DNA of 64,000 nt. Origin: an uncultured Gemmatimonadales bacterium. Lineage in GTDB: Bacteria; Gemmatimonadota; Gemmatimonadetes; Gemmatimonadales; GWC2-71-9. The position numbers were made by a program, and so were the translations under genes. The notes beneath the pieces are model-generated. The model made no database searches and was not told the origin of the DNA. It worked only from the letters and a program-made list of their open reading frames with translations. The stretch is taken from positions 640,001-704,000 of the forward strand of contig CAVOGR010000007.1 in NCBI GenBank assembly GCA_963695555.1, written 5' to 3'. Of this stretch, positions 1-23,250 are shown piece after piece (within the stretch, counting starts at the first letter, position 1; each line of letters opens with the position of its first letter).

Positions 1-106
1 AACACGGCGCACCACGCGATTCGGTTTCAGTAGATTAGATTGGTTGGAAGCGGCATTGGACAATATAACCGTCGATCCAAATCGTTACAACTCAGTGAGT
101 TAGCGC

Positions 107-6018: not shown

Positions 6019-6345
6019 GTGCACACCCTTGGTTGGAGGTTGGTTGATAAGAAAGAAGCCCGGTCGGACGAAATGCGACATTCGACTGTTGACATGAGCC
6101 GCGCCGCCGAAGGTCTTCTAACTTATTGTAATACAACAGTTTACAGAAGGGCCGCAGACGGATAGACCCCAGACCCCTGAGGCCCTGGTTCGGGGGTGCG
6201 GCCCATCCCCACGAGTCCATATCGCACTAGTATACCACCCCGTCATATGAGGTCAAGGACGGGTTTCGGAGCCGTTACAGGCCAGCTGGGGCCCGATAAC
6301 GGCCACTTTGGAGGGCCCACGATTGCCGGCCAAAAGTCCCCATTC

Positions 6346-7762
6346 TCACAGCACGAAACCGAACACCACGAACAGCACTAACGCCCCCGACGCCGTTATC
6401 AGGGCATACGGCAACTGGGTTCGCACGTGGTCGATATGATCGGTGGCCGAGGCCATGGAGGCCACAATGGTGGTGTCGGATATGGGGGAGCAGTGGTCGC
6501 CGAAGATCCCGCCGCCCAGGGCCGCCGCCAGGGTCAGGCTCGGCGGCAGGCCAAGAATGGCAATCATCGGGATCACGATGGGAATTATGATGGCGAAGGT
6601 GCCCCAGGAGGTCCCGGTGGAGAAGGCGATGAAGCAGGCCAGGAGGAAGACGGTGGCCGGCACCAGGCCCGGATGGAGCGCCGCCTGGGCCGCCTGGGCC
6701 ACGAACACCCCCGTGCCCAGGGCCCGGGTGGTGATGCCGATGGCGAAGGCCAAGGCCAGCACGATCACCAGCGGGATCAGGCCCTGGATGCCCTTGATGA
6801 GCGCTCTCGGTGATCTCCCCGATGGTCATGATGCCCTGGACCCGATAGATGACCGCCGCCAGCACGAGCCCGGTGATCACGCCCCAGAGCACCGCCCGCG
6901 ACCCGCTGCCCTGCATGATGTTGCCGTCCCCGGTCAGCCAGAGCACCACCGGCACCATGGCCACCATCGTGACAATCGGAACGACCATGTTGAGGGCCCG
7001 CTCCGGCGCTCCCGGTTTCTTCTGGGTCATGGCGACATCGGTCGCGATCATCGGTGTTGCGCCGTCTCGCAGCAGTTTGCCCTCTTCGCGCACCCGGCGT
7101 TCCGCCTCACGCATCGGTCCGATGTTCCATCCGGTCAGCACCACGATCAGCGCGAGCACGATGGCCAGGATGGCGTAGAAGTTGAGCGGGAGCGCCGCCA
7201 CCAGGAGCGGCACCGGGTTTTCGACCCCTTGGGCCATGAGCAGCCCGATGACGTAGGCGCCCCAGGCGTTGAGCGGGATCAGGATGCACTTGGGCGAGCA
7301 GGTGGCGTCGATGATGTAGGCCAGCTTCTCGCGCGAGATCCGGCACTTGTCGAACAGGGGCCGCGCCACCGACCCCGCCACCAACAACCCGAAGTTCGAC
7401 TCGAGAAACACTGCCATGCTCACGAGGATGGTGATGATCCCAACCGACCGCGGCGACTTGGCCAGCCCCTGCCGTTCGACCCACGTGATGAAGCCTTCCA
7501 TCCCGCCGGACAGCTGGGTGAAGATGATCATCGCCCCGATGAGGGCACTGAACAGCAAGGTGCGCGCGTTGTCGGGGTCGGTCACCGCGGCCACGAACAC
7601 GTCGACCGACTGGATCAGGCCGGCGAGCGGATTCCAGCCGTTCATGATGGTCCAGCCGAGCAGGATGTAGAGGCCGAGCGACAGATAGACCTGCTTGGTC
7701 TTGATGGCGAGGCCGATGGCGACGATGGGCGGAAGAATCGATAGCCAGCCGATGGTTTCCAT
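6346..7762 (-). CDS. Na+/H+ antiporter NhaC family protein, one +1 break near 6805
   Basis: WLSILPPIVAIGLAIKTK, SREKLAYIID, FSTGTSWGTF, GDHCSPISDTT, DHIDHVRTQLPY split over two frames; removing one base at about 6805 restores EALIKGIQG. Confidence 0.85.
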
Positions 7763-7963: not shown

Positions 7964-8866
7964 ATGACATCCTACACTCTCCTTCGACGAACCGCCTACA
8001 CCGCGGTCGCTCTTTCGTTCGCGTTGATCGTGCTCGGCGGCATCGTCCGGATCACCGGCTCCGGCATGGGCTGCGGGGAGCACTGGCCCAAGTGCAACGG
8101 CGAGTGGTTCCCGCCGCTCGACCTGCCCACGTTCATCGAGATCTTCCACCGCTGGGTGGCGGCCCTGGTGAGCGTCGCGGTCCTGGTCACGGGGGCCGTG
8201 GCCTGGCGCCGGCACCGACACGAGCCCCGGCTGCTCGTGCCGGCCACGCTCGCCGTCCTGCTCTTGATTAGCCAGGTCCTGCTCGGCGCGGTGACCGTCA
8301 AGCTCGAGCTGCCTCCGGCAGTGGTGATCGTGCACTTCGTGAATGCGCTGTTGCTGTTGACGGCCGTGCTGGTGACGGCCCTCCGGGCGAGCCCGGAGCC
8401 GGCAATACCTCCTCCGGCCCAACGCCACCCGCTCCATCGCCTGGCCTGGGTCACGGCGCTCACCGGCTTTGCTACGGTCATCCTGGGGGCCTACGTGGCC
8501 AATCTGAACGCCGGCCCCGCGTGCCTGGGCTTCCCGCTCTGTCGGGGCGGAATCCTGCCACCGCCGGACCCGCTGGCCCATGTGCACCTGACCCATCGGA
8601 TCGTGGCCTACGCCTTCTTCGTCCTGCTCGTGGTGCTGGTCGTGAGGGCCACGAAGCGCGCGGACGCCGAGTCGCGGAGCTTCAAGCTGAGCGCCGTTGC
8701 TGCCCTGATGCTTGCCATCGTCCAGATCGGCATTGCCGCGGCGATGGTGCTGCAGTTCTTGCCGCCGAGTCTCAGGGGGCTCCATTTGCTGGCAGGAACG
8801 GCCATCTGGGCGGCCCTGGTGATCATGACCCACTACTCATCCCGGCCCAGGGTCTCGCCTTCATGA
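7964..8866 (+). CDS. ctaA: Heme A synthase, COX15/CtaA family
   Basis: GGIVRITGSGMGCGEHWPKC, EIFHR, second Cys pair ACLGFPLC, HLTHR, eight hydrophobic segments. Confidence 0.9.
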   Translation: MTSYTLLRRTAYTAVALSFALIVLGGIVRITGSGMGCGEHWPKCNGEWFPPLDLPTFIEIFHRWVAALVSVAVLVTGAVAWRRHRHEPRLLVPATLAVLLLISQVLLGAVTVKLELPPAVVIVHFVNALLLLTAVLVTALRASPEPAIPPPAQRHPLHRLAWVTALTGFATVILGAYVANLNAGPACLGFPLCRGGILPPPDPLAHVHLTHRIVAYAFFVLLVVLVVRATKRADAESRSFKLSAVAALMLAIVQIGIAAAMVLQFLPPSLRGLHLLAGTAIWAALVIMTHYSSRPRVSPS

Positions 8867-9109
8867 ACGGATCCAGTCGCGCAGTGCCACGATAGTCAGC
8901 TGGCACGTCTCCCGAGGACCGGCGCCTCGGGGGCCACGGCCCAACTAGCCTCGGCCGGGGCGGGCGCAGTGGTGTTCCCGGGTCGGATAGCTGACGGTAT
9001 CTTGCAGGGTGGCGGCCACCTATTCCCCCAGGCAGCCCTCGACCAGGTCCACTCTCCCGCCGGAGGCCGAGTGGAACAACCGACATCTCTCGTTCGTCAG
9101 GGTAGTCCT

Positions 9110-10486
9110 ATGTCGCGAACCCAGATCTTAGCCAGTAGTCTGCTGCTCTCTGTTGCTCTGGCCGGTTGTGGTGACGACAACGTGACCGCGCCGCTGGAGC
9201 CGGAATTCCGCAGTGCCGTCGCATCGGCCAATCCCAACAATACGATCAGCGCCGTTGTCACGGTGACCGCTGTCCGGTACGACAGTACATTTGTGCGTTA
9301 CTGGCAGGCCGGCCAGCCAACGGGCGTCACTCCCACCTACCCCTTCGACGGCGACAGCACACTCCGCATACCGGTCCTCGGGCTGGCTTCCACCTCCGAC
9401 TACTCGCTCGAGACCAACGTCTTCGTCGCCGGAATGGCGCCTGAGGCGGTCGATACGACGGTCTTCTCCAGTGGATCACTTCCTGCCTGGATTCCCCAGG
9501 CGGTCGCAGTTGGCACGGATACTTCGCCCGGCTTCTTGGCGTTGTCCTACCCGGGTGGCCCCGTGATCGTGGACAACACAGCTCGTGTCGTGTGGTACAA
9601 GGACTTCCCCAACGGAACGCTGAACACCTTTCAGGCTCACGATAACGGTTGGTACACCGTCATGGGTTTGGGCGATCCGGCCGGAGGGTTTCATGTGTTG
9701 GACGATTTGGGCGAGGAGGTTCAAGTCCTCACCTGTAACGGGCGGCCAACGCGGTTTCACGACCTCCTGGTCGAGGCCGACGGGAGCGCCTGGATTCTGT
9801 GCGATGAGACCCGCACTATGGATCTCTCCTCCGTTGGTGGGGTCGCGGCCGCGTCGGTCACGGCGACGGTGCTGCAGCACCTCGCCCCGAATGGACAACT
9901 GCTCTTCGAGTGGAACAGTTTCGACCACTTTGCGATCACCGATCTCCCGCTGGCCGATCGGACGGCGAGTCCAATCAACTTTACCCACGGCAATGGGATC
10001 GCGATCGACCACGATGGGAATCTCCTCCTATCCTTCCGGAGCCTGAGTGAGGTCACGAAGGTCGACCGCACGACGGGAGACATCATCTGGCGTTTCGGGG
10101 GATTGCAGAACCAGTTCACCATTCAAAACGACCCCAAGGGCTTTTTCGAGCGGCAGCATGGTATGCGGCCCGCCGGCCCGGGCCAGATTCAATTCCTCGA
10201 CAATGGTTCGGCCCCACCGAGTCGCATGGTGCGCTACCTCTTGAACCCGGCCTCCGGAACGGCGCTCCTGGTCATGGAGTTCATCGACGCTCCGTCCACC
10301 TTTACGTCCGTCGGGGGAAGCACTCAGTATTTCTCCAATGGCAACGGGTTGGTCTCCTTCGCACAGGCGGGGCGCGTGGTCGAGGTGGATCCCGTGGGGA
10401 ACCGGGCCTGGGAGCTCACCGGAATCGCCAACATTTATGTGTTTAGGGCTCAGCGCATAGCGTCACTCTATGCGCGCGGGAGGTGA
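9110..10486 (+). CDS. Arylsulfotransferase (ASST-like) lipoprotein
   Basis: Lipobox LAGC; motifs FHDL, FEWNSFDH, FTHGNGI, LLLSFR, IIWRFGG, QHG, DNG, YVFRAQR. Confidence 0.75.
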   Translation: MSRTQILASSLLLSVALAGCGDDNVTAPLEPEFRSAVASANPNNTISAVVTVTAVRYDSTFVRYWQAGQPTGVTPTYPFDGDSTLRIPVLGLASTSDYSLETNVFVAGMAPEAVDTTVFSSGSLPAWIPQAVAVGTDTSPGFLALSYPGGPVIVDNTARVVWYKDFPNGTLNTFQAHDNGWYTVMGLGDPAGGFHVLDDLGEEVQVLTCNGRPTRFHDLLVEADGSAWILCDETRTMDLSSVGGVAAASVTATVLQHLAPNGQLLFEWNSFDHFAITDLPLADRTASPINFTHGNGIAIDHDGNLLLSFRSLSEVTKVDRTTGDIIWRFGGLQNQFTIQNDPKGFFERQHGMRPAGPGQIQFLDNGSAPPSRMVRYLLNPASGTALLVMEFIDAPSTFTSVGGSTQYFSNGNGLVSFAQAGRVVEVDPVGNRAWELTGIANIYVFRAQRIASLYARGR

Positions 10487-10505
10487 ACATGTGCTGGCGG
10501 CACGA

Positions 10506-10544
10506 GAGAGGAGCCCCCAGCGATTGGCGCTGGGGGCTCCTCTC
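10506..10544. terminator. 17-bp hairpin between convergent genes; probable end of the TBDR-PorV operon
   Basis: GAGAGGAGCCCCCAGCG-ATTGG-CGCTGGGGGCTCCTCTC. Confidence 0.75.
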
Positions 10545-10567
10545 GTGCCTAACCTACCTGGATCCGA

Positions 10568-11620
10568 TTACGAATCGGCATCCCGGGTGATGTAGATCCC
10601 AATCCACGCCGGTGTTGTCCCGGCGAAGAGCTCCACGATGATCTCGTTGGAACCGGCGGTCAAGTTGGTCGTGACGGCCTCCGGCTGGTCATAGAAACTG
10701 AACCCGGAGCCAACGAAGAGATCTTCGTCGGCGCCGTTCGACCAATACAACGTGATCGTATATGTGCCGTCCACCGGAACGTCGAAGTTGTAGTACTTGT
10801 CTCCGGCTGCGTCGAATCCCGAGCCAGCGTCAAACGCGCAGGTGGTCTCTCCCACCGCGGCCGGCGTTGCCAGAGTCGGGGCGGTGAGTGGATCGTCCGT
10901 GCCGGGCAACGCCACGATGTTGGTCGTGATGTCGAGTTGTCCCGTCCCCGGAAGGGCAAGGGGGGTCGTGGGCAGGAAGCTGATAGCCACATCCGAGAAG
11001 TTCCCGCCGCCGCTCGATCCGGGAAGCGGGCAAACGGTAATGGACGAGCCATCGGCGGCCGCGCTCAGGATGGGCGCAACGAGCGAGATCGCGTTTGGAT
11101 CGAGCCCGAAGTCCAGAGCGGCGCTCGCCAGGAAGCTATAGCCCGCGGCCGTGACGGTGACCGCCGTGCCTGGGTCACCCGCGGCGGGCGTGAAGACGGC
11201 AGGAATCGCGGCGGGGATCACCTTAACCGGGATGTCCATCGACAGCCCGCTGCCCGACGCTGATAGGGTTCCATCCGTCCCGCCCACTCCGGACACGACG
11301 AACCGCGCCCGCGTCCAGGGATCCGGACGCGTTGCAACCCCGGCGGCATCGTACACCAGGTTGAACGCCGAGTCCTCGACTACGTTGATCAGAGGATCGT
11401 TCGAGACCATGGCGAAATCCGAGATCCCGAGCTCGTTCCCCTGGTCGTCCAAGACCTCGAGGACGACCAACTCGGACTCGCCTTGATTGACGAAGATGGA
11501 CGATGGGGATGCATCGACCTTGACCGCGTCTCCGCGGAGATCACCCTGCGGATCTCCCTTACAGGCCCATGCGCCCACTCCGATGGCGAGAACAGCCAAA
11601 CCACGCATAGTACGATTCAT
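10568..11620 (-). CDS. Hypothetical lipoprotein, beta-rich; C-terminus resembles a PPC-type domain
   Basis: GAGGGG RBS 6 nt before MNRT; lipobox AWAC; C-terminal YYNFDVPVDGTYTITLYWSNGADEDLFV. Confidence 0.7.
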   Translation of the reverse strand: MNRTMRGLAVLAIGVGAWACKGDPQGDLRGDAVKVDASPSSIFVNQGESELVVLEVLDDQGNELGISDFAMVSNDPLINVVEDSAFNLVYDAAGVATRPDPWTRARFVVSGVGGTDGTLSASGSGLSMDIPVKVIPAAIPAVFTPAAGDPGTAVTVTAAGYSFLASAALDFGLDPNAISLVAPILSAAADGSSITVCPLPGSSGGGNFSDVAISFLPTTPLALPGTGQLDITTNIVALPGTDDPLTAPTLATPAAVGETTCAFDAGSGFDAAGDKYYNFDVPVDGTYTITLYWSNGADEDLFVGSGFSFYDQPEAVTTNLTAGSNEIIVELFAGTTPAWIGIYITRDADS

Positions 11621-11672
11621 ACTCATCCCCTCGTTCATGATCGAATGTTCCGATCCGCGTAAGACACAAGCT

Positions 11673-13136
11673 TCAGTGAGCGTCAGAAATCCGGATTGGC
11701 CCGCCCCGGCTCAGGAAGTCGACCCCGAGATACCTGCTGATGTCGACGACTCCTTCCTCCGTCAAAATATCGAGCCAATCACCGCGCGAGACTTCGGTCA
11801 AGTCGTCGGTGTAGAGCAGTTGATAGTTCCCGAGCCCCGTCCGGTCCGCGAAGATGTAGTACCGGCCCCTGCCTCGCTGGTACTGCCAGACCGTATAGGG
11901 GGGAGCCTTCCCCGACCGCGTGCGCGACAGGCTGTCGGCCGGTGTGCCGTACTTTGCGAACACACGCCCCCGGTCCGTGCGCCATCCTTCCCGGCCCCGG
12001 CGTCCCGGCTCGGTGTAGTGCTGATTGGCGTAGTCGATCGCCGCATAAAACTGTTCACGCGCCTCGTTCTTCTCGGTTCCATCCGTCGGGTCCCGGCCTT
12101 GCCAGAACTCGGCCAGAAACCTTCGCTTGGCTGTGAGCGAGAGGTCCTTGAAGACCTTGAGGTTGTCCTTGGACTCCGCGATGTAGTCCAGCGGTTCCGC
12201 CGCGGCATCCAGCTCCGCCTCACTCATGGTTGCGAAGTACCCTGCATCTCCCACCCGCTCGGTCGCCCGCTTCATCGAATCCGCCACCAGCGCTGCATGC
12301 AGCCCCTGCATCTGGAACGGGCGCGTCCGCTCGACTGCCTGATCTCCCAGAGTCAGGGAGACGCGCATCTGATACGCGCCCTCGGGCAGGCCCGCCAGGT
12401 CCATCTGGCCCTTCAAGACCCCACCCCCGGCAGGCACGCCGACCACGGTCGGCGGCGTTCTCACTACCACCTGTCCGTCCTGAGACAGGATGGCCACCGC
12501 CATGGTCCCGCTGGCTTCCTGCTCGGCATAGGCCTCCAACAGGTAATAGGCCTTGGTCCTGAGCGGCGTGAGAATCAACTCCTCCGCCGGCGTCACGATC
12601 GTAGTGCCGAACTGAATCTGCCCGGCGCCTGGCATACTGTCCGCCTCGGTCGCCAACCGCATCTCGGGCGCCAACAAGAGATCCGAGGCCACCGGATTGG
12701 CCGCGAACGCTTCGATGGTCTTCGTACTGACGAAGCGCCGTCCCGTTACCGAATCGGTGACCGCCACTTCCAGCTGGTAGCGTCCCGCCGCCAGCGGGAA
12801 TTCCAAGACCTCCAACGCTCGCGCGCCCGCCATGCCGACTGCGACCGGAGCGCGCCCGCTCCACGATTCCTCGTGAAGGGTGAGGCCCGCGGTATCGGCA
12901 ATGCGGACCGCCACCTGATAGCTCACGTGCATTCCCGGGCTCGCGGCGGTCGGCTCGAGGAGCGCATACGGAATCGCGACAAACGCCTTGCACCGGGTTT
13001 GCTGGAACTCCGCTCGATAAAACCGAACCAGCTGAATCTCAGGGCCGGCCTGTGCCTCGACCGTCCCAGCCGCCGCTGGCAGCATGCCGAACCCGGCACC
13101 GATAACTGCCGCCAGTGCAAGACGGCGCTTCACCAT
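11673..13136 (-). CDS. GWxTD domain-containing exported protein
   Basis: FW..RDP...T..NE..E.FY..I.YAN, then GWRTDRGRVFAKYGTP; signal peptide ending VEA-Q. Confidence 0.88.
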   Translation of the reverse strand: MVKRRLALAAVIGAGFGMLPAAAGTVEAQAGPEIQLVRFYRAEFQQTRCKAFVAIPYALLEPTAASPGMHVSYQVAVRIADTAGLTLHEESWSGRAPVAVGMAGARALEVLEFPLAAGRYQLEVAVTDSVTGRRFVSTKTIEAFAANPVASDLLLAPEMRLATEADSMPGAGQIQFGTTIVTPAEELILTPLRTKAYYLLEAYAEQEASGTMAVAILSQDGQVVVRTPPTVVGVPAGGGVLKGQMDLAGLPEGAYQMRVSLTLGDQAVERTRPFQMQGLHAALVADSMKRATERVGDAGYFATMSEAELDAAAEPLDYIAESKDNLKVFKDLSLTAKRRFLAEFWQGRDPTDGTEKNEAREQFYAAIDYANQHYTEPGRRGREGWRTDRGRVFAKYGTPADSLSRTRSGKAPPYTVWQYQRGRGRYYIFADRTGLGNYQLLYTDDLTEVSRGDWLDILTEEGVVDISRYLGVDFLSRGGPIRISDAH

Positions 13137-13200
13137 GTATACCTGCCTTGAAATCCCGGTCGGGGGGTCCGAGAACCCCCCGCCGAGGTTCCGATAGTCC

Positions 13201-14325
13201 TTACCAACCAACACTCAGGGTGAAGAAGTTCGTCGGCCCGAGCACGCCCATGTACTTGTAGGCGTAGTCGAAGCCAACCTTGAACTGCCCCGCCCCGTAC
13301 CAGAGGCCACCGCCGAACGCGAGACCGCCGAGGTTTTCCTCGTCGGACAACGCGGTCACCAGGGTCGCCGGCTCCAGATTCCGGTCGCCGGTGTAGCTGT
13401 AACTACCGCGCACCGCCGCCCCGAACCCGGTTTCGCCGATCTGGTCGAGCGCCCACTCGAAGCCGCCGACAGCGCCGGCCCGATTGTTGGTGGGCTGATT
13501 GAAGTCGCCCAGGATCGTCACCCGATTGTTGGTTCCGGCGATCAGGTCGTACGCCAACCCGACCCGGAAGATCGTCGGAAGCGGGAACGCCTTGGTCCGC
13601 AACCGAGCATCCGCGGGCAGACTCGGGACCGGCTGTTCACCCGGCAGTGGATCCCGGGGGGAGCCCGTATTCAGGGCGTCACCCGAGTACGACAGGTTGG
13701 TGCCGAGGTTGGCCAGGGTAAAGGAGAAGCGCACCGGGTGATTGGCCAACATCGCGTGGAAGTTCGTGCCGAAGTCGACCGCGAACGCCGAACCATTGGC
13801 GTCGCCCAGCTGGTCGAACACGAACTTGGCGGTGATACCGGCGCTGAACCGGTCCGAGAAATTCTCCGCATAGGTGATGCCGGCGAAGGTCTCGTTCACC
13901 GAGTAGACCGAGCCGGTGCCTTCAGGTTGGGCCGCCGTGTAAACCGGCTGGTTGTCGAACCCGAAGGTACCCAGCTGGAAGCCGACGGCCCGCGCGCCAC
14001 CCGAGAACGGGAACGCGATACCGCCCCAGCTGTACTTGGTCTCCGCCACATAGTCATAGGTGCTGAACATCGCAGACGGCCGGTCCAGCAATGCCACGCC
14101 GGCCGGATTGTAGTACAGGGCACTCACGTCCTCGGCCAAGGCCGAAAACGCTCCGCCCAGGGCCGTACCGCGCGCACCCGCTCCGAGGAGCAGGAACTCT
14201 GCCGCCGTCGACCCATAGGGCGTGTTGTCCTGGTTGACCTGATCGGACTGCGCCGTCAACGCGACGGGCAGGCCCGCGACCAGCGTCGCTACCAGGGCCA
14301 ACCGGTGGAGGGTTGTGTGCATCAT
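13201..14325 (-). CDS. PorV/PorQ (UPF0164)-like outer-membrane beta-barrel
   Basis: AAEFLLLGAGARGTALGGA, ALYYNPAG, FAVDFG, NLG, LPTIFRVG, FDYAY; terminal aromatic residue (SVGW). Confidence 0.82.
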   Translation of the reverse strand: MMHTTLHRLALVATLVAGLPVALTAQSDQVNQDNTPYGSTAAEFLLLGAGARGTALGGAFSALAEDVSALYYNPAGVALLDRPSAMFSTYDYVAETKYSWGGIAFPFSGGARAVGFQLGTFGFDNQPVYTAAQPEGTGSVYSVNETFAGITYAENFSDRFSAGITAKFVFDQLGDANGSAFAVDFGTNFHAMLANHPVRFSFTLANLGTNLSYSGDALNTGSPRDPLPGEQPVPSLPADARLRTKAFPLPTIFRVGLAYDLIAGTNNRVTILGDFNQPTNNRAGAVGGFEWALDQIGETGFGAAVRGSYSYTGDRNLEPATLVTALSDEENLGGLAFGGGLWYGAGQFKVGFDYAYKYMGVLGPTNFFTLSVGW

Positions 14326-14383
14326 AGATCTCGACTCTCCGTGTTGGGAGGGACGGGCCGGAGCCCGCCCCCCACCCAAAGGG

Positions 14384-17300
14384 CTACTGGGCAAAGTTGA
14401 CGACGGTCATCCGGCCGACCCGTCGTGCGTCGCCGGATTCGATATGATAGAAATACACGCCGCTGGCGACCACCTGGTTGTTCCGATTCCGGACGTTCCA
14501 GTCTTCGAATCCGCCAAACTGCGTCGAGTTGTGCTCCAACAGGGCCACCAGCACCCCGCTCGACGAGTAGATCCGGATGATCGCTTGTTCCGGCAGGTTC
14601 ACGAACTTGATGACCTTCGAGACCGTCGTGGTCTCGAACTCATTGGTGACGTAGTACGGATCCGGCACGGTGTGGACCCTGGACAGGTCGTTCACCGATG
14701 CCGCGTTCACCTTGTTGGTCAGGTCGAACTGCACCCTGAGTTCGGTGCCGACCGCCGTCCACGACCGCGGCGGGTTGAAGTCTTGGTTGAAGATGTACGA
14801 ACCGTAGTTGCCGCCATCGCCGTTCCCGCCGACGATGCCGCCGATGTAGCTCCGGAGCGACCACACCGTGCCCGCAGCCGGCACTCCGCCGCCGGCCATC
14901 GCCATGGTGAAGAAGTCGCCGGACAGGTAGATGCCGAAGCCGGCATCCGCCCACACCGGATCGGTGCGGGACGCCGACAGCGACGGGCTGAACGGCACCA
15001 CCGGACCCGGAATGGCGGTCCGGCTGAGCGTATAGGTTGGCCCACCCGAGCAGTTCGCCGAGCCCGGGCTGTAGCCCGGCTGGTTCATCGGCGCGATGCA
15101 GTGCAGGTCGGTGTAGGTCAGCTCATCACGTGCATCGTACGACCCGGCCGACGGCAGTGCCGCCGACTGGTTCAGGATGCCCCAGGTGCCGGCCAGGTGA
15201 TCGGCCGCGAAGGGGACCTCCACGTTGTGGGTCACGTCGATCACCGAATCCACGGTGCCGCCGGCTCCCCAGTACACGTTGAAGTCGGCCGCGCGCCGGG
15301 CACCGCTTCGGATGCCTTCGGCCGGCCGCATCTCACCGCCGCCCACCGACTGGTAGGCCTGGGTGTTGTGGATCAGCGAGACCCCGGTCAGCTCCCCGCC
15401 GTTGTTGTAGTTGGTCATCGGGTCACCGCTGAAGTTGGCGGTATTCCCCGAGATGGGGTCGGCCATGGTCTCGTTGTTTTGCGGCGACGGGCCATCGAAC
15501 CACCGCGAGCCGTTATACGCGCACTCGCCATCGCCGCCGAAGTTCCGCCGGCCGTTCACACAGCCACGGCCGTAGAGCGAGTGATAGTCGGGGCCTTCCA
15601 TCTCCATCGACATGGCCCCGGCAAGGGAATAGGCCGCCGAGCCGCCGTAGCGCGACGCCAGGGTCCCGTCGACCTGAATCGACGGCAAATTGGCGCTGGC
15701 CGACTGGAGACCGATTTCCGCCGGCTGCGTGATCGGCAGCATGAGCGAAACAGCTGCACCGCCCGCATCGGCGGTAATCCAGTACTGGTGCGGCAACGCC
15801 GGGCTGCTGTAGGGCGAGCCCAGGACGATGCTATCCAGCCGGGCGGTCAGCGCGCCTGGCTGACTCAGCACCTCTTTCACGAACCCGGCCAGGCCGATTT
15901 CCCACGCGTTGCTGGCGGGGAACGGCCCTGCGAACCGGCCGGTGACCGGATCGAGCGCCGGACTCGGCGAGGTATGATCCAGCAGCTGGTCCCGACCGAA
16001 AATACCGGCGATGACGGTGGCCTCGTTTTCGTAGTTCGAGGCCGGCGCCCGCGGCACCACCGCCTTGGTGTTCCGGGCCGACTCCAGGTTGGAGGGACCC
16101 GACTGCCACGAGTTGATGTCGAACGCCGTCACCGAGTAGAAGTAGCGGAAGTTGCTGCGCACGCTGTTGTCGACGTACACGAACGGCACGCCGGCGTCCG
16201 ACAGCTGCGGGTAGCCGGCGCTGTTCCCGGTTACCGCAGTGTCCGCCACCAGCACGATCGCCGTCCCGTCCGCCAGCGCCGTCCGCTCGCCCAGCTTGAC
16301 CTGGACGATCTCGCCCACCAGCGGAATCTCGACGAACTCGATTCGCGGCAGGCCGGGCGTGAACGGCCCGAAGGACACGGCGCAGTTTGCCGTAATGGCG
16401 ATTTCGGGGGCGCAGAGCACGTCCGGATTGATCTGGCCTGCATAGTCGCTGATGCTGGTGCCGGTGTAGTCGAACTGCGCGATCAGCTGCAGTTCGTTCG
16501 GCGCATCCACCCGGCCGCGATACACTCGGTACCCTTCCACGTCGAACTCCCGATAGTTGGGATCGTAGAGGGCGTTGGTCGGGTCGCTTGCCACCGAGAA
16601 GAACGGATCGCCGTTGGCCTCCGACACGGTCGGCCGCCACAGCACCGTCACCTGGTTGTCGTTCGGCACCAGGAAGAAGTCCGGCGAGTCCGGCGCGAAC
16701 GGCAGCAGGAATTGGGCGTCGAAGATGGCCTGGGCCGTCAACGACTTACCGAGCAGCGAACCGGGCACCACGAGGTACTCGTCCTGCGTCACCTCCCCGT
16801 CGGCATTGGCATCGTTGAAGCCGAGGTAGCCCGCGATGCTGTCCGTAATCGGCACGCCCGGGCTGGTCATGAGCTGCGGATTCCCGTGGATCGGGTCGTT
16901 GCCCACCACCTGCTGTCCTGGCGGCAGGTCGCCGCAGGGCCCTGCCACGCAGCCGCCCACGGCCACAGGGGCCGCAAAGATGTACGACACCACGATGGTC
17001 CCGAGCCCGCCCGGCGTGAGCGCCAAGGGGGTCGAGGACTGGTAGAACCGCATGTCGAAGTGCCGCGAGTTGTTCAGGTAGCAGATTCTGCTCTGGGTCG
17101 GATCGCCCGAGTTACAGGGCTCGTCACCCGCGGCCACGCTGATCTGGCCCGAGAGGTAGCGATACAGCTGGGTGGTGTTCTGCGGGTCGCCGAACTGGCC
17201 ACCGTTTTCGGTGTTGCTGTACAGCTGAATCGCACCGGCGCCGGTCGGGCTCTTCAGGTACTTGACCCCGACGAAGCCGCTGCCGGCAAAGAACGGCGCG

Positions 17301-18286
17301 GAAAAGATGGCCGGATCGAAGGTCCAGCCGGCGAACCGATCGAACTCGCCGTCGTAGGTGGTGCCCAACGCGAACGGGAGGATGACGCCCGCCCAGTTGG
17401 TGCCCGCCGAGGCGACGTCCATGTCCGTGCCGAATGCGGCAAACAATGGATCGACCGTGTACCCGTCGGTGGGCAAGGTGATTCCGCTCGCGGCATTGTT
17501 CCGCGAATGGAACTCCTGAGCGCTTTCCACCAGGATATCGACCATCGAGGGCCGGATCCCCTGGGCCTCGTAGTCGCTCCGGTTGAGCGAGCTCACGTTA
17601 TAGAAGGTGTAGATGTAGTAGAGCAGGTCTTCATTCCCGGAGGGGAAGTTCCAGCCGAGCCCCCGGGTCTCGACGACCACGCCCAGCGGGTGCGGCCGCC
17701 CGGCCGAGAATGACGGATCGCCGTCCCAGGACATGAACCAGATGTCGCCCTGCGAGGCCGAGACCCGGCCCTGGAGCAGACTCTGGAACACATCCGCCTG
17801 CGGGTCGGGCGACGACGGCACCCGGGCTGGGTGGTTCGGGTCGGCGTTCACCTCCGCAAAATCAGAGGGGTTGTTCATGTTGTAGATCGGCCGGACCTCG
17901 AGGCCGTGCTGGGTGGTGCCCTTCGGATCGAAGAAGAACGCACCCGTAGTGTCGCCGGCCCACGGGCCGCCGTCGGTGCCAATGATCCCGGCCAGCTGGA
18001 GGCCCGTATTGAAGACGTACTGGTCGGCCGTCCCCTTGGGCCAGAACCCGCCACCGATGGTCGACGAGTTGGTCGAGTCAACGCAGATCTGCCCGTCGCT
18101 GCTCAGACCGCAGTAGATCCGGTTGATGGTCATCGCGCCCAGGCTCCGCGCGAACAGGCGGAACCCCCGCTTGGCGTTAGCTCCCGGCTCCGGCACCGCC
18201 GACGCCGTGGTCGGCGCTACCGCCGCCAGCACGAACGCCAGGAGTGTGGCCAGCAGGGCGCTGCGCGAACGAAATGTTGAATGCAT
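14384..18286 (-). CDS. Large (~1300 aa) secreted hypothetical protein with FN3-like segment and T9SS-CTD/FlgD-Ig-like C-terminus
   Basis: GAGAGGA RBS; signal peptide; VTVLW..EGYRVYR..YVD..YFYSVTAFD; C-terminal VHTVPDPY..IKFVNLP..IRIYSSSGVLV..WNVRN..VASGVYFYHI. Confidence 0.82.
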   Translation of the reverse strand: MHSTFRSRSALLATLLAFVLAAVAPTTASAVPEPGANAKRGFRLFARSLGAMTINRIYCGLSSDGQICVDSTNSSTIGGGFWPKGTADQYVFNTGLQLAGIIGTDGGPWAGDTTGAFFFDPKGTTQHGLEVRPIYNMNNPSDFAEVNADPNHPARVPSSPDPQADVFQSLLQGRVSASQGDIWFMSWDGDPSFSAGRPHPLGVVVETRGLGWNFPSGNEDLLYYIYTFYNVSSLNRSDYEAQGIRPSMVDILVESAQEFHSRNNAASGITLPTDGYTVDPLFAAFGTDMDVASAGTNWAGVILPFALGTTYDGEFDRFAGWTFDPAIFSAPFFAGSGFVGVKYLKSPTGAGAIQLYSNTENGGQFGDPQNTTQLYRYLSGQISVAAGDEPCNSGDPTQSRICYLNNSRHFDMRFYQSSTPLALTPGGLGTIVVSYIFAAPVAVGGCVAGPCGDLPPGQQVVGNDPIHGNPQLMTSPGVPITDSIAGYLGFNDANADGEVTQDEYLVVPGSLLGKSLTAQAIFDAQFLLPFAPDSPDFFLVPNDNQVTVLWRPTVSEANGDPFFSVASDPTNALYDPNYREFDVEGYRVYRGRVDAPNELQLIAQFDYTGTSISDYAGQINPDVLCAPEIAITANCAVSFGPFTPGLPRIEFVEIPLVGEIVQVKLGERTALADGTAIVLVADTAVTGNSAGYPQLSDAGVPFVYVDNSVRSNFRYFYSVTAFDINSWQSGPSNLESARNTKAVVPRAPASNYENEATVIAGIFGRDQLLDHTSPSPALDPVTGRFAGPFPASNAWEIGLAGFVKEVLSQPGALTARLDSIVLGSPYSSPALPHQYWITADAGGAAVSLMLPITQPAEIGLQSASANLPSIQVDGTLASRYGGSAAYSLAGAMSMEMEGPDYHSLYGRGCVNGRRNFGGDGECAYNGSRWFDGPSPQNNETMADPISGNTANFSGDPMTNYNNGGELTGVSLIHNTQAYQSVGGGEMRPAEGIRSGARRAADFNVYWGAGGTVDSVIDVTHNVEVPFAADHLAGTWGILNQSAALPSAGSYDARDELTYTDLHCIAPMNQPGYSPGSANCSGGPTYTLSRTAIPGPVVPFSPSLSASRTDPVWADAGFGIYLSGDFFTMAMAGGGVPAAGTVWSLRSYIGGIVGGNGDGGNYGSYIFNQDFNPPRSWTAVGTELRVQFDLTNKVNAASVNDLSRVHTVPDPYYVTNEFETTTVSKVIKFVNLPEQAIIRIYSSSGVLVALLEHNSTQFGGFEDWNVRNRNNQVVASGVYFYHIESGDARRVGRMTVVNFAQ

Positions 18287-18376
18287 GGCGTCCTCTCTCA
18301 AATGAAACATGTACGACGGCACGGCGGGTGACCTCCGGAGACTCGCTCCAGAGGCCGCCCGACCTGCCGCCATCCC

Positions 18377-21300
18377 TTAGAAGTTCAATTCAAAGCCCAA
18401 CCGGAGACGACGCGGCGTCCCGGTGAAGGCGTGAAGCCCATTGCCCTGCAAGTACGACGCATCCGACGCAGCGCGCTGTTCGGCCAACGTGAAGACCCCG
18501 TCGCCGTTTCCGTAGCGCTGCTCGGCACGGATGATGTAGATGCAGTTCGGCGCGTTCGGCTCGCCGCCCTGGTTGGTCCAGTTGCCGCACATGCCCGTCT
18601 GATTGGGCGTTCCGGTACCGAACGACATGTCCATCACGCCGGACGCATCGTCGTACACGTTGTTCCTGATCGCTTCGTTCGCCCACTGCGAGCTGTCCAC
18701 TCTCCAGATCCGCTCCTCGTTTGCCGCACTGCGGATGTCGTTCGTGGCGGCAAACACCTGGGTGATGTTCTCCAGGTTGAGGATGTTCCGGGCATCCGCG
18801 TACACCGTCACGTCGAGGCCGCGGAGCTGGAAGCCCTTGGTGAGCCGGAGGTCGAACTGCTTGAAGGTCGGCAACCGGGCGCCGTTCTGGTCGCCCTCGA
18901 ACTCCCGGGAGCAGACCGCGCCCGACAGCGTTGCCTCGTTGCCGCTCTCCGGCGGGCAGCGGGTGTAGGCCGTGCCGCTGGCCACCCGGAACGTCCCGAA
19001 CAGGCCGACGTTCTTCAGAATCCCACCGAGCGCTGTGCCTTCTTTCCAATCGTTCGGGAAGGTCAGCGCGAACGACCCGGCCAGGTTGTGCGGCCGGCTC
19101 GAGTTGAGCGGCAGAATCGCCTGCGGCGGCGGCTGGTTGCCGCCAGTGACCTGCTGCACGATACGCGAACCGAAGTTGATGTAGGTCCGCGGGTCGCTGC
19201 CGGTGGCCTTCGCATCCTGGAAGGTGTACGCCACCGAGCCGTTGAACATGTTCCCGAACCGCCGGTCGAGCCGGAGGTCGATACCCTTGGTGTTGCCGAA
19301 GTCGGCGTTGGTCATCAAGCGGATGTCCTGCTTGATGTTCTTGGCCGGGTCGGTCAGCCGGACGAGCCGGCCCGCGGCGTTCGAGATGTTGTCCTTGTTG
19401 TACGCCGCGATGTCCAGCACCATGTCGTCGTTGAACGAGTGACGGATGCCGAACTCGAACGTGATGGTCCGGCCGAAGTCGAGGTCGGCGCCATACACGT
19501 GGTTGGTGTTGGTGATTGCGAGATCGGTGTTGGTCCCGCCCAGGATCAGACCGAAGTCCGGCGTCTGCACCTGGTGAGCGTACGACAGCCGGAAGTTGGT
19601 CCGCTCGGTCACCGGGAAGGCGACCTGGATGTGCGGGCTCAAGTAGTTGTGGCTCTCGTCCTTCCGGAAGATGGTCAGCTCACGCCCATCGGACGCCGTG
19701 CCCTGATAGGTGCTGGTCCGCGGGAAGTAGACGTACTCGTTGAAGGTCTCGCTGTTCGCATCTAAATCCAGCAGATACGGACGCTCGGCCTTGCTGTCGT
19801 AGTAGTCGTACCGCAACCCGCCGACGAGTACCACGTCGCCCAGGTCCAGACGATCCTCGATGAAGGCGTTCCACCGGACCGGCTCTCCCTTGAACACTTC
19901 GGAGAAGGCCTGGCTAGTCAGCGTGTGCGAGTAGATGAACATGTCGTACTTGGTGTACTCGCCGCCCAGCTTGATCCGGTTGTAGCGATCGAGCTGCCAA
20001 TCGAGGTTGGCCTTCCCGATGTAGCGGTCTTCCTTGAACAACTGAAGCCGGCCCTGGGGGCCGCCGCCTTCGGAGACGCCCAGGCGCCCCTCGGCGTTGT
20101 TCCGGTAGTTGTCGATCTCGTTGTACTGGTCGCGCTCCTCGAGATTGAACGGACTCCGCCGCGAACCGTTGATGTTGTCGCGGTAGTTCTCGATCAACTG
20201 GTCGTTGAGCGGGAAGTTGTCGAAATCGAACAGGAATTCGTAGGGCTTGATGTAGAACCCGCCGAACGGCTGATAGCTGGCGCGCTCAGTCTCGCGGGTG
20301 AGCGGCGAGAAGATCTGCCGGTCTGTCTGATACGAGCCGAAGACCTCGAGCGCCAAGGCCCGCTCAGCCGACTTGGACAGGTTCTGGGTCCAGTTGACCG
20401 TCAGGTTCCGGTTCCAGTTCCGCGTCGCGAAGGCGTCGGCGGGATTGGACTGGTCGAAGTCGTTCCGGTTCTGGTCTTGCGTTGCCAGACCCGTGACCGA
20501 GATCCGCGAACCGCCGGCGAAGCTGTAGTTGAGCTTACCGCTCAGTTTCCAGTTGGTCGCCCCGGTGGCCGGCCGCCGGATGCCCTTGGCATCGTAGCCG
20601 TAGTTGCTGGCGATGCCCGCATTGGTGCTGTTGGCAAAGTCATCGACCTTGCCGGTATAGACCGCGTACTGTTCGACATCCACCCACGTGGTGTCGGCAC
20701 CGGCCGAAAAACTCGACGGTACCGCCACCGTGGTGTCGACCCCGGCCCGGACGAAGATCGGGAACTTGTCGCGATCCATCCCACCGGTGAATGACCGGAA
20801 GCCTTCGAGTTGGCCACCCAAGAAGAAGGTCAGCCCACCCGCAATCGGGCCGGCTAGCGAACCGTTGACAAAGTTCTGGCCGGGCATGGTGCCGCCAAAC
20901 ATCTCGTCGGTCCCGTACCCCAGCGAGCCGGTGAAGGCCGGCCCACCGGTCCGGGTCGAGATCGAGATGACGCCGGACTGGGCGTTGCCGAACTCGGCCG
21001 AGGACGACCCGGTGGTGATCGAGGCCTCCTCGAAGGCATTGGTGGCCACGAGGTCGGTGCCGGCGTTCCCGCTGCCCATGACGAACCCGGTGCCGCGGTT
21101 GCCGGCCGTGGTCGGCACGCCGTCGATGTAGATCACGGCCTCATCCGACCGGCCGCCCCGGATCGACAGCGTCCCACCGCCCTGGCTCGCCACCACGCCG
21201 GCTTGAAGCGCCAGTGCGTTCTGGATGCGGTCCACCGGCAGTTTGTCGCCGAAGTTGCCGCCCAGGCGCTGCTTGGTGGTGACCTCGTCGCGCGGCACCA

Positions 21301-21697
21301 GCGGTTGTGTTGCCGCCGTCACGGTCAACTCCTCGACCTGGAACGGTGTCGCCTCGAGCACGATGTCTTGGGTAACCGTCTGGCCGCCCAGGACTCGCAC
21401 GTTGGTCACCTGGGTCGACTTGTAACCGATAAAGCCGCCCTGCAAGGTGTACGTGCTCGCGGGAACATTGTTGATGAAGTAGTAGCCTTGAGGCGTTGTC
21501 TGGGCTTGGAAAGTCGTGCCCACGATAAATACCTGCGCATTCGCGATAGGTGCGCCAGCCTGATCTCGCACCCTGCCTTCGAGTTTCCCAGTCGTGCCCT
21601 GCGCCATGAGGGTCGAGGCCCCCAGCAGGGTCAGGACTGTCACGAGCACGCTCGCGCGGGCCCGTCGGACGAAGGCGCTCACACAACGTTGGGTCAT
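18377..21697 (-). CDS. TonB-dependent receptor with carboxypeptidase-regulatory-like N-domain
   Basis: AGGAGG RBS; TTGKLEGRV, SIRGGRSDE..YIDGVP, SAEFGNAQSGVI, SPHIQVAFPVTE; C-terminal RRLRLGFELNF. Confidence 0.9.
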   Translation of the reverse strand: MTQRCVSAFVRRARASVLVTVLTLLGASTLMAQGTTGKLEGRVRDQAGAPIANAQVFIVGTTFQAQTTPQGYYFINNVPASTYTLQGGFIGYKSTQVTNVRVLGGQTVTQDIVLEATPFQVEELTVTAATQPLVPRDEVTTKQRLGGNFGDKLPVDRIQNALALQAGVVASQGGGTLSIRGGRSDEAVIYIDGVPTTAGNRGTGFVMGSGNAGTDLVATNAFEEASITTGSSSAEFGNAQSGVISISTRTGGPAFTGSLGYGTDEMFGGTMPGQNFVNGSLAGPIAGGLTFFLGGQLEGFRSFTGGMDRDKFPIFVRAGVDTTVAVPSSFSAGADTTWVDVEQYAVYTGKVDDFANSTNAGIASNYGYDAKGIRRPATGATNWKLSGKLNYSFAGGSRISVTGLATQDQNRNDFDQSNPADAFATRNWNRNLTVNWTQNLSKSAERALALEVFGSYQTDRQIFSPLTRETERASYQPFGGFYIKPYEFLFDFDNFPLNDQLIENYRDNINGSRRSPFNLEERDQYNEIDNYRNNAEGRLGVSEGGGPQGRLQLFKEDRYIGKANLDWQLDRYNRIKLGGEYTKYDMFIYSHTLTSQAFSEVFKGEPVRWNAFIEDRLDLGDVVLVGGLRYDYYDSKAERPYLLDLDANSETFNEYVYFPRTSTYQGTASDGRELTIFRKDESHNYLSPHIQVAFPVTERTNFRLSYAHQVQTPDFGLILGGTNTDLAITNTNHVYGADLDFGRTITFEFGIRHSFNDDMVLDIAAYNKDNISNAAGRLVRLTDPAKNIKQDIRLMTNADFGNTKGIDLRLDRRFGNMFNGSVAYTFQDAKATGSDPRTYINFGSRIVQQVTGGNQPPPQAILPLNSSRPHNLAGSFALTFPNDWKEGTALGGILKNVGLFGTFRVASGTAYTRCPPESGNEATLSGAVCSREFEGDQNGARLPTFKQFDLRLTKGFQLRGLDVTVYADARNILNLENITQVFAATNDIRSAANEERIWRVDSSQWANEAIRNNVYDDASGVMDMSFGTGTPNQTGMCGNWTNQGGEPNAPNCIYIIRAEQRYGNGDGVFTLAEQRAASDASYLQGNGLHAFTGTPRRLRLGFELNF

Positions 21698-21901
21698 GGA
21701 AACGTCCTCCTACAAAGTGAAACGCAACAATCCACCAAAGAGCTTATGAAGCCAAACGCGTGCATCCCCCTTCCGACGCGTGCCGTCTTGGGGATGCGAC
21801 TGCGCTGCCCAGCGAAACCTGCGTGTGCTAGTAGAGAGCTCTAAACCAACTCGTTCTAAATATCCTCGGAAACGCCGGCCGCGGCCCGACCGACGCAGGC
21901 A

Positions 21902-21929
21902 ATATTACGCACGCCTTGGCCGCTGTCAA
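21902..21929 (-). promoter_or_regulatory. Sigma70-type promoter of the TBDR-PorV operon
   Basis: Minus strand TTGACA-16 nt-TAATAT, about 200 nt upstream of the ATG at 21697. Confidence 0.65.
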
Positions 21930-22068: not shown

Positions 22069-23250
22069 TCACCCGGCCGGGGTTATGAGCTCAACCTGGG
22101 GCCTGGCCGGAGTCACGACCGGGCCCGTAAGTGCCCAGTACATATTGATTTCGCTCCGCATACCGACATCGCCAGGCAGGTAGATTCCCGGTTCGATCGA
22201 AAAGCCCACCCCCGGCATGAGAAGGCGGTCGTCCAGTGTTTCGTAGCTGTCCAGGTGGGGACCCGATCCGTGGAGCTCCCGGTCGATGGAGTGCCCGGTC
22301 CGGTGGACGAAGGCCTCCCCGAAGCCCGCCGCCTCGATGACGGCGCGAGCGGCCTGATCCACCTGGTAGCCGGCCAGCGGCCGGCCCTCTGCTGCCGCGT
22401 CCATCACGGCGGCGATGCCCTGATCTCGGGCCTCCCGCACCGTACGCCAGATTCGCTGGATCCGCTCCGGAGGATTGGCGCCCGCGAAGCCCATCCAGGT
22501 CTGGTCGGCGAAAACGGTGGTCTTGGTCCGGCCGGCCCAGAGGTCGAGCAGCACCACGTCGCCGTCCCGGAGGGTCGCGTCCTTCCCTGCCATAGGCTCG
22601 TAATGAGGATTGGCACAATTGGCCCCGAAGGCCACGATCGGTAGGGTGTCGAGCTCGAGCCCCCCCGCCTCCATGGCCCGGATGACCTCCGCCTGCATGG
22701 CCGATTCGGTCAGCCCTTCATTAATAGAGGAAACCGCCTTTCTGATCGCATCCTGCGCAACCCGGGCCAGTACCTCCGCGGCAAAGGTGTGGTCCTCGAC
22801 CTCCGATGGCTGCCAGCGGGCGGCGAACCGGGTCACCAGCGGGGCCGACGAGACCACGGTCCCGCCCAGCTTGGTGATGAGTTGGACCACGCCGTGAGGG
22901 ACCCGGTCCAGGTAGGGAACGGCGTCCTCGGTGCTCACCTCCATCGCAATGGTACGGCCCGCCACCAGAGGCTCGAGCGCCTTGTGAAGCTCCTCCCAGC
23001 GGGCGTAGGGCACCACCTTCCCCGGGAACCCCTCGACCGGCTGGAGCTCGATCTTGTGGGCCACCGCCACGAAGTCGCCGGCGGCCGGCAGCAGCACGAA
23101 CAGGCGCCGGGTGGCCAGGCCGCCGGAAATTCCCAATACCCGGTTGGTGACGGGATTGATGCCGTGGAAATCGAACAGGAGCCAGGCGTCGGCGCCGATC
23201 TCTCGCAGGGTTTCGGCCAACTCGGCGCGGTCGAGCGTAACTGGACTCAT
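22069..23250 (-). CDS. Xaa-Pro aminopeptidase, M24 family
   Basis: ANPHYEP, LLDLW, FADQT, HRTGHSI, FSIEPGIY, RSE metal-ligand motifs. Confidence 0.9.
   Translation of the reverse strand: MSPVTLDRAELAETLREIGADAWLLFDFHGINPVTNRVLGISGGLATRRLFVLLPAAGDFVAVAHKIELQPVEGFPGKVVPYARWEELHKALEPLVAGRTIAMEVSTEDAVPYLDRVPHGVVQLITKLGGTVVSSAPLVTRFAARWQPSEVEDHTFAAEVLARVAQDAIRKAVSSINEGLTESAMQAEVIRAMEAGGLELDTLPIVAFGANCANPHYEPMAGKDATLRDGDVVLLDLWAGRTKTTVFADQTWMGFAGANPPERIQRIWRTVREARDQGIAAVMDAAAEGRPLAGYQVDQAARAVIEAAGFGEAFVHRTGHSIDRELHGSGPHLDSYETLDDRLLMPGVGFSIEPGIYLPGDVGMRSEINMYWALTGPVVTPARPQVELITPAG

Follow-up and report, generated by a model that had tools for sequence, protein, structure and literature searches.

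Which surface partner serves a TonB-dependent transporter that is encoded without a neighbouring SusD, and how would that partner reach the cell surface? The question is raised by a five-gene cluster in a 64,000-nucleotide stretch of DNA from an uncultured Gemmatimonadales bacterium (GenBank assembly GCA_963695555.1, 87% complete; contig CAVOGR010000007.1, positions 640,001 to 704,000), hereafter called the window. An earlier note on this DNA had suggested that the cluster may form a five-part outer-membrane machine for import or adhesion. The analysis presented here points, with somewhat better than even confidence, to a nutrient importer that runs on TonB and without SusD and receives its surface partner from a reduced secretion system of type IX (T9SS). 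The proteins of the cluster, with lengths based on the likeliest start codons, are:

18377 to 21697, minus strand: TonB-dependent transporter (the receptor), 1106 amino acids, with signal peptide, CarboxypepD_reg N-terminal extension, TonB-box-like strand, plug, and a barrel ending in Phe
14384 to 18286, minus strand: large tailed protein (the cargo), 1300 amino acids, with a beta-supersandwich, an Fn3-like domain, more beta domains, and, at the C-terminus, a T9SS tail like those of PorZ and PorU
13201 to 14322, minus strand: PorV/PorQ-family barrel, 373 amino acids, scoring 140.8 with NF033709 (PorV_fam; cut-off 90)
11673 to 13133, minus strand: GWxTD protein, 486 amino acids, with signal peptide, scoring 84.6 with TIGR04514 (cut-off 28)
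10568 to 11620, minus strand: lipoprotein, 350 amino acids, a chain of immunoglobulin (Ig)-like (Big_2/TIG) and PPC-like domains

Conservation of the Gene Cluster

The open reading frames (ORFs) were found where the earlier note had placed them, co-oriented and separated by short gaps of 90, 61, 67, and 52 bp, with a third-position GC content of 0.77–0.88. Export signals, claimed for all five proteins, were recognised by eye (no predictor), and a lipobox-like Cys pattern occurred in 10 of 11 homologues of the fifth gene. The five-gene order was retained in 20 of 20 informative loci from Gemmatimonadetes, i.e., loci with a close cargo orthologue on enough contig (13 chosen by PorV match, the rest by cargo match); a 21st locus ended after the barrel gene. 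Eleven stretches chosen by cargo match comprised eight with the trio of receptor, cargo, and barrel, two with extra cargo copies without a barrel of their own, and one short unrelated match.

In other families of the phylum, the trio occurred without GWxTD protein and lipoprotein, with several copies per genome in family f9. One divergent barrel, used as query, retrieved nine loci (one Gemmatimonadota record and eight Caldithrix/Calditrichaceae, Ignavibacteria, and Neomarinimicrobiota records), all of which contained the trio. On the Bacteroidota side (the phylum to which an Ignavibacteriaceae record belongs), 19 loci were picked by cargo match alone; the receptor gene lay upstream in all 19, once with one gene between, and the barrel gene downstream in 18; a GWxTD gene was present in none of them and was also missing from most other lineages. 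Since GWxTD protein and lipoprotein are lineage-restricted, a universal five-gene unit was rejected. The proposed five-part machine is instead a core of receptor, cargo, and barrel, which is also found in Ignavibacteria, Calditrichota, and Marinisomatota records, with two lineage-specific additions.

Tree distances of the three core genes were strongly correlated across 36 trios (r 0.94–0.96; 0/999 permutations), and paralogous modules within one genome sorted by module type. The cargo family is large, with 1634 matches among 7999 scored candidates and 769 cluster representatives, and the module is patchy, occurring in 26 of the 44 genomes of its own family.

The Receptor and the Absence of SusD

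CarboxypepD_reg and Plug (Pfam) both matched the receptor above cut-off. Its own barrel reached no Pfam model; homologues in the same alignment passed TonB_dep_Rec_b-barrel. No NCBIfam model, including those for SusC, matched the protein. A TonB-box-like stretch was aligned across 36 module receptors, as was the terminal Phe. SusD (PF07980) was found neither beside the receptor nor anywhere in the 87%-complete genome, in a search that detected its positive control; the earlier observation that no SusD-like gene follows the receptor was thus borne out. The genome carries an exbB-exbD-exbD-tonB-like cluster (C4:31854-34592) and a Tol-Pal-like cluster, in which ExbD was assigned by hidden Markov model (HMM) and the other members were read from sequence.

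A paralogue of the receptor at G000:C2:136169-139095 matches from residue 134 only (the N-terminal extension is absent), spans two frames, and has no adjacent cargo or barrel gene.

The Barrel and Its Modelled Complex With the Cargo Tail

Profile matches in the PDB linked the barrel to Flavobacterium johnsoniae PorV (E 4e-19) rather than to TodX (E 0.02). Toluene_X reached 19.6 (cut-off 29.7), over residues 73–121 only. On these grounds a plain FadL channel was rejected, and the PorV-like assignment of the earlier note, supported by NF033709, was upheld. The protein falls outside the housekeeping PorV equivalog (NF033710; 50.8 vs. 250) and the PorQ equivalog (NF033711; 62.4 vs. 220). In a FastTree phylogeny, 10 PorVs linked to era and two linked to porU grouped together (SH support 100), apart from 50 module barrels; the module's barrel is therefore a dedicated paralogue, as the earlier note had proposed in calling it private. 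The module barrels formed two supported subgroups whose union, the grouping expected under a single origin of all of them, had a support of only 57.

Models of the complex of barrel and cargo tail scored 0.91, 0.91, and 0.89, compared with 0.00 for the controls; runs agreed in at least 89% of contacts, with a pLDDT (predicted local distance difference test) of at least 79 for the partners. The mark used for such scores was reached by 116 of 157 solved pairs and by 2 of 215 mismatched pairs. A contact between tail and barrel is thus confidently predicted, as the earlier note had expected. Complexes of PorV with a C-terminal domain (CTD) have already been solved, and the modelled pass may therefore reflect likeness to them. 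The model suggests that the barrel is probably the module's own carrier and anchor of the cargo. None of the three outcomes that the earlier note had named beforehand as speaking against its proposal (gene order not conserved, no contact, grouping with FadL channels) occurred.

In relatives, a housekeeping PorV-family gene lies in the era … prfB-lysS region and is followed by a second barrel-like gene (L059, L082, L083, L085, L087, L088, L106, L108); era-linked PorVs are also present in genomes with SprA and without the module. The window's own genome yielded one PorV-family gene, and the era/lysS region, the site of the housekeeping PorV in relatives, had no close match in this 87% assembly. 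The description of the module barrel as the sole PorV of the genome was dropped, and the single count is probably an assembly gap. In the near-complete relatives G023 and G041, only the module barrel scored above the PorV cut-off (the era region of either was not located), and some genomes may use the module barrel alone. A divergent PorV-like gene that forms its own clade stands 3' of a large protein (with TIG in L107), near dnaE/accA-like genes, in L102, L107, L109, and L110. Other pairs of a cargo and its own barrel were seen in families f9–f11 (L072-L076, L079): in one kind, a PorV accompanies an inactive, M6-like metalloprotease, and the other is porU-porV.

Type IX Secretion Components

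Whether the genome encodes the machinery by which a tailed cargo could be exported was a check named by the earlier note, and a translocon gene was found at the edge of the window:

1 to 15 (G000:C7:633944-640015), minus strand: start of sprA, encoding the T9SS translocon (2023 amino acids), which runs off the left window edge; TIGR04189 473.8 bits (cut-off 200)

This gene follows the module on the same strand, 10.5 kb downstream; 13 family genomes show the same orientation, at a downstream distance of 10–21 kb. Among 101 genomes of the phylum, SprA was above cut-off in 81 and a PorV-family protein in 79. All 50 cargo-positive genomes of this set contained SprA and none of the 20 SprA-negative genomes contained the cargo; on the Bacteroidota side, 39 of 40 cargo-positive genomes had SprA. 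Rather than being self-contained, the module tracks sprA. The converse, that the module is needed wherever SprA is present, was rejected, as 31 of the 81 SprA-positive genomes of the phylum lacked the cargo, including complete genomes with only an era-linked PorV above cut-off.

The earlier note had also suggested a search for porKLMN. None of the 101 genomes of the phylum contained GldM (control: 19 of 81 genomes of a second sample), GldN (control: 4 of 5), or GldL (three weak matches; no positive control) above cut-off, GldK being outside the search; GldM and GldN were likewise undetected in the window's own genome. A very divergent GldL/GldM motor could escape the HMMs. The PorU sortase was found in none of 86 genomes of the module's own class and in all 15 from other classes of the phylum. 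In view of this absence, the cargo tail probably stays on.

In the second sample, 81 genomes from the Bacteroidota side, strong cargo matches (E below 1e-30) were present in 39 of 44 SprA-positive, GldM-negative genomes, in none of 19 GldM-positive genomes (two of which had weak matches near 1e-22), and in 1 of 18 SprA-negative genomes. These 81 genomes are kin, class membership probably divides them, and motor-less lineages were the source of the cargo profile; the count therefore describes a pattern and proves no cause.

This exclusion, the lack of GldL, GldM, and GldN above cut-off throughout the phylum, with working controls for GldM and GldN, and the proximity of sprA to the module in 13 genomes would fit a role of the receptor as energy coupler, in which TonB-ExbBD, acting through the receptor, pulls the pair of barrel and cargo off SprA and so replaces GldLM. 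We consider this improbable. The 31 SprA-positive genomes without cargo also lack GldM, the exclusion of cargo and GldM probably tracks class boundaries, multiple copies per genome in substrate-specific contexts suit transport better, and a divergent motor might simply have gone undetected.

Domain Structure of the Cargo

Family scans matched the cargo at its C-terminus only. TIGR04183 scored 18.7 bits in the protein scan and 24.1 in the genome search (cut-off 23), and the best PDB matches of a profile of the tail were PorZ (5m11; E 0.003) and PorU (6za2; E 0.005), the two proteins whose tails are left uncleaved according to an excerpt of PMC10947112. The earlier assignment of a T9SS CTD is in keeping with the PorZ and PorU profile matches and borderline for TIGR04183. 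The last strand of 38 aligned tails carries Arg or Lys, 19 each, and the window's cargo has Arg at the usual Lys position.

An AlphaFold2 model of residues 60–1230 (pLDDT 89.8) predicted that the first ~490 residues form a beta-supersandwich, and the fold comparison mainly concerns the first 500 residues. The best match (Z 19.1, root-mean-square deviation 3.2, 251 residues aligned) was among N-terminal domains of GH15/GH94/GH65-type (glucoamylase- and phosphorylase-type) enzymes, family labels based partly on the entry titles. No helical catalytic barrel follows the supersandwich in the model. What follows is a domain judged Fn3-like from its strand pattern and conservation; within the cargo, conservation is highest there.

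Some matches of the supersandwich are catalytic (e.g., aldose 1-epimerases, Z ~13), and cargoes within Gemmatimonadetes share conserved Asp, His, and Arg residues, as could be expected if the cargo were a surface enzyme (a supersandwich resembling an epimerase, lyase, or hydrolase) that cuts polymers down for the receptor, similar to SusG rather than SusD. However, N-terminal enzyme domains are the best matches, and the cargo model lacks a helical barrel after them; the His/Arg set does not persist across phyla; the scan of 13 cargoes found no enzyme Pfam family; and members of one and the same cargo family lie beside enzymes for starch, xylan, glucan, peptidoglycan, and peptides. A surface enzyme is therefore judged unlikely.

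Cargo copies that are ~50–65% identical and have no barrel of their own were found at G000:C8:1703-9480 (two copies, frameshifted in the assembly), L135:7803-11750 (intact), and L143:8100-11966, and the barrel is absent from locus L116. A 124-aa protein encoded at G000:C1:1124604-1124978 is nearly all T9SS-like tail and has no evident signal peptide.

Genomic Context in Relatives

Neighbours of trios in other lineages were annotated by scanning hand-picked ORFs (74 and 53, four of the latter being cargoes). They included LacI, ROK, and RpiR regulators; glycosidases (GH13/CBM20, GH10/CBM9, GH144-type glycoamylase with GH3, GH16/GH2/GH3, GH28, and GH36-type melibiases); N-acetylmuramoyl amidases; M14, S51, S9, and M28 peptidases; and components of SSF, TRAP, and ABC transporters, other neighbours being unrelated or unnamed. 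The median number of SusD proteins per genome was 1 in cargo-positive genomes (none in 19 of 40, maximum 5) and 10 in GldM-positive ones. The trios of relatives thus hold the position and keep the company of SusC/SusD pairs (SusCD). In the window itself, no degradative enzyme or regulator stands beside the module; peptides are a weak guess for its substrate, prompted by the M24 peptidase, which is conserved, and by amino-acid permeases in the vicinity.

Of the two functions that the earlier note had left side by side, import is better supported by this gene context than adhesion. The cargo might nevertheless be an adhesin or structural protein displayed on its barrel, with a receptor that only shares its regulation and acts either by itself or together with the lipoprotein. 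It is large and has many beta domains, orphan copies of it exist, the flanks of the window's copy lack degradative genes, and F. johnsoniae cargoes with a cognate carrier gene directly 3' are known or predicted adhesins, as described in a section of PMC12618676. Against this stand the receptor that precedes the cargo in 19 of 19 Bacteroidota-side cargo-picked loci and co-diverges with it across phyla, and the placement of paralogues in distinct catabolic clusters, so that we regard an adhesin as unlikely.

In L117, L122, L124, and L126, the gene immediately before the receptor or behind the barrel encodes a PPIC-type rotamase. Such genes could hint at an outer-membrane assembly device, in which barrel and cargo make up a canopy assisting a neighbouring barrel to fold or insert, in the manner of BamG/H/M beside BamA, with the GWxTD protein as periplasmic helper; BamG, a barrel of the FadL family, provides the anchor for an extracellular canopy next to another barrel (excerpt of PMC12611786). 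This would be very surprising for a module that is patchy even in its own family (26/44 genomes), multi-copy, bound to catabolic loci, and in most trios devoid of a GWxTD protein.

Proposed Mechanism

In the importer that we favour, all five proteins would cross the inner membrane by Sec, as their signal peptides suggest. Recognition of the cargo tail would take place at SprA, and the PorV-family barrel of the module would take the tail over, a route that extends the Bacteroidota mechanism to the parts and co-occurrence observed here. Without PorU, whose absence was observed, the tail would be retained and the cargo held on the barrel at the surface like PorZ on PorQ, as the modelled contact also suggests. 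Beside or over the transporter, the cargo would bind substrate in the place of SusD, after which TonB-ExbBD, for which motor genes are present, would open the plug and let the substrate enter. GWxTD protein and lipoprotein would be accessories gained in the module's own lineage. By our rough judgement, export of the cargo through SprA is very probable and its retention on the barrel almost equally so; an import role of the module is probable, and direct contact between cargo and receptor has hardly better than an even chance.

Several observations weigh against the importer proposed here. The score of the cargo tail borders on the type A cut-off, and Arg stands in place of the usual Lys. The predicted supersandwich fold indicates no function, and Foldseek matches were weak. 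Exit of the cargo from SprA without GldLM is unexplained, as removal of the motor traps cargo in F. johnsoniae (part of PMC10994853). Co-inheritance shows that the trio was inherited as a unit or shared operon and does not show binding. The orphan cargo copies and locus L116 further indicate that pairing of cargo and barrel is not strictly one to one. Finally, 21 of 40 cargo-positive genomes keep some SusD, the neighbour annotation covers hand-picked ORFs, and, since no glycosidase or regulator stands beside the window's own copy, the surroundings that speak for import are those of paralogous modules with only ~20–30% identity.

Comparison With Known Systems

SusCD is the textbook polymer uptake route of bacteria of the Fibrobacteres-Chlorobi-Bacteroidetes (FCB) group. 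As in SusC/SusD, a gene for a TonB-dependent transporter with N-terminal extension precedes that of a surface partner, and relatives of the module stand among glycosidases and regulators; an Ig-chain lipoprotein comes after the module, just as surface glycan-binding proteins come after SusCD. In contrast, the module receptor matches no SusC model, and its partner, a putative lid, is a 1300-aa beta protein with T9SS tail and barrel anchor, whereas SusD is lipid-anchored and helical.

In the attachment complex of Porphyromonas gingivalis (PorQ-PorZ/PorV-PorU), too, a surface protein is kept on a PorV-family barrel through a tail that is not cleaved, a contact that is modelled and a retention that is presumed for the module; PorZ and PorU have the tails nearest to that of the module's cargo. 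The cargo, however, matches PorZ over the tail only (NF052228; 26.5 vs. 260 bits), the module's own class lacks PorU, and the module's pair has a set place after a TonB-dependent transporter and exists in many paralogous copies. Cargo release from SprA is thought to require GldLM. The canonical Bacteroidota T9SS shares SprA, PorV-family carriers, and tailed cargo with the system described here, in which GldL, GldM, GldN, and PorU were undetected. For type B CTD cargoes of F. johnsoniae and their PorP/SprF shuttles, the consulted portion of PMC12618676 also describes a cargo-specific carrier gene directly 3' of its cargo; the module tail is instead type A/PorZ-like and its carrier is of the PorV family, whereas the type A cargoes of F. 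johnsoniae share one PorV. A small FadL-family barrel also anchors surface proteins above a larger barrel in the BamG/BamH/BamM canopy (as outlined in part of PMC12611786), which differs in being essential assembly machinery and lipoprotein-anchored, the module being patchy and T9SS-tailed.

Full-text literature searches returned no description of the trio: its parts are known, and their conserved arrangement is one for which no description was found. What the present analysis adds is the catabolic context of paralogues, the exclusion with GldM, the lack of the sortase, the tree of paralogues, and the fold of the cargo. A table in a partially consulted study (PMC6987092, Table 1) lists, for the xylan locus of Rhodothermus marinus, a receptor, a tailed hypothetical protein, and a hypothetical protein in the same order, a match by pattern only; this locus points to a cultured test organism.

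Many of the sampled Ignavibacteria-side genomes have few or no SusD proteins and several trios inside catabolic clusters. If the cargo is a lid, uptake systems of such genomes would become annotatable, and loci missed by SusCD-based predictors would become visible. The occurrence of SprA, carriers, and cargo without detectable GldL, GldM, or GldN (81/101 Gemmatimonadota genomes; 44/81 in the second phylum) makes the question of the energy source testable. More speculatively, and in our view rather doubtfully, a motor-less T9SS may, as one of its conserved tasks, bring barrel-anchored lids to TonB importers across FCB bacteria outside the GldLM-bearing Bacteroidota. Such importers would form another class of utilisome, a second one that does without SusD and may predate SusCD; a source other than GldLM would drive export, TonB-ExbBD via the receptor being one candidate.

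Accessory Proteins

A model of the GWxTD protein (pLDDT 91.8) comprised two Ig/FnIII-like domains, a helical region, and an alpha/beta GWxTD domain. Its structure search returned generic Ig matches only (best Z 12.3), with lists filled by the Ig part, so that the GWxTD domain was barely probed; the tail HMM did not match the protein, and a literature search on GWxTD gave nothing relevant. A stand-alone, 199-aa GWxTD-only gene follows one module (L044:13299-13898), and three further GWxTD proteins of the window's own genome are unlinked to any trio (G000:C2:414532-415728; G000:C1:777457-781821).

The lipoprotein itself matched no family above cut-off. Its neighbours in the Atlas carry Big_2 and PPC, and one homologue matches PPC and TIG. 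It is the most variable gene of the cluster, with 32–38% identity where the core genes keep 42–69%.

Transcription Signals and Flanking Genes

The following features flank the cluster:

21901 to 21929, minus strand: sigma-70-like promoter candidate (TTGACA-16/17-TAATAT-like, 10/12 matches)
~10499 to 10549, no strand assigned: hairpin between the lipoprotein gene and a convergent arylsulfotransferase gene (-50.6 kcal/mol, z -7.9, 0/200 shuffles)
22069 to 23250, minus strand: M24 (Xaa-Pro) peptidase (Peptidase_M24 match), upstream of the receptor in most family-level loci

A single upstream promoter and a downstream terminator had been proposed. A candidate promoter was indeed found, but the number of such sites is at chance level (three observed, 2.1 ± 1.6 expected), so that this candidate is weak. 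The strong hairpin is likely the transcript end, although it lacks a U-run and was not listed by the terminator scan. Fourteen RNA-labelled runs contained part of the stretch, just one of them with more than half of its words. Contig depth in four runs was equally flat across the cluster and flanking genes, with no cover at 8820–10800; it is therefore indistinguishable from DNA and was not used as evidence of transcription.

The M24 peptidase gene is a conserved upstream neighbour within the family and a possible member of the system. At the other end of the window (1–2766, with G000:C7:612000-640015), sprA is divergent from what we take to be an lptF/lptG-like pair and is followed by presumed peptidase-like and type IV pilus genes, names assigned on reading the sequence; this order recurs in L091 and L112-L114. 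A second TonB-dependent receptor (2848–6018, minus strand), Oar-like (OMP_b-brl_4), has no neighbouring cargo, barrel, or SusD. The arylsulfotransferase-family lipoprotein that converges on the cluster (9110–10486, plus strand) is also encoded in the same-genus locus L042 and not in most other relatives. Between these two genes, a membrane transporter-like gene (6275–7762, minus strand) has a C-terminal part that carries on in another frame (ORF 6346–6768), possibly through an assembly error.

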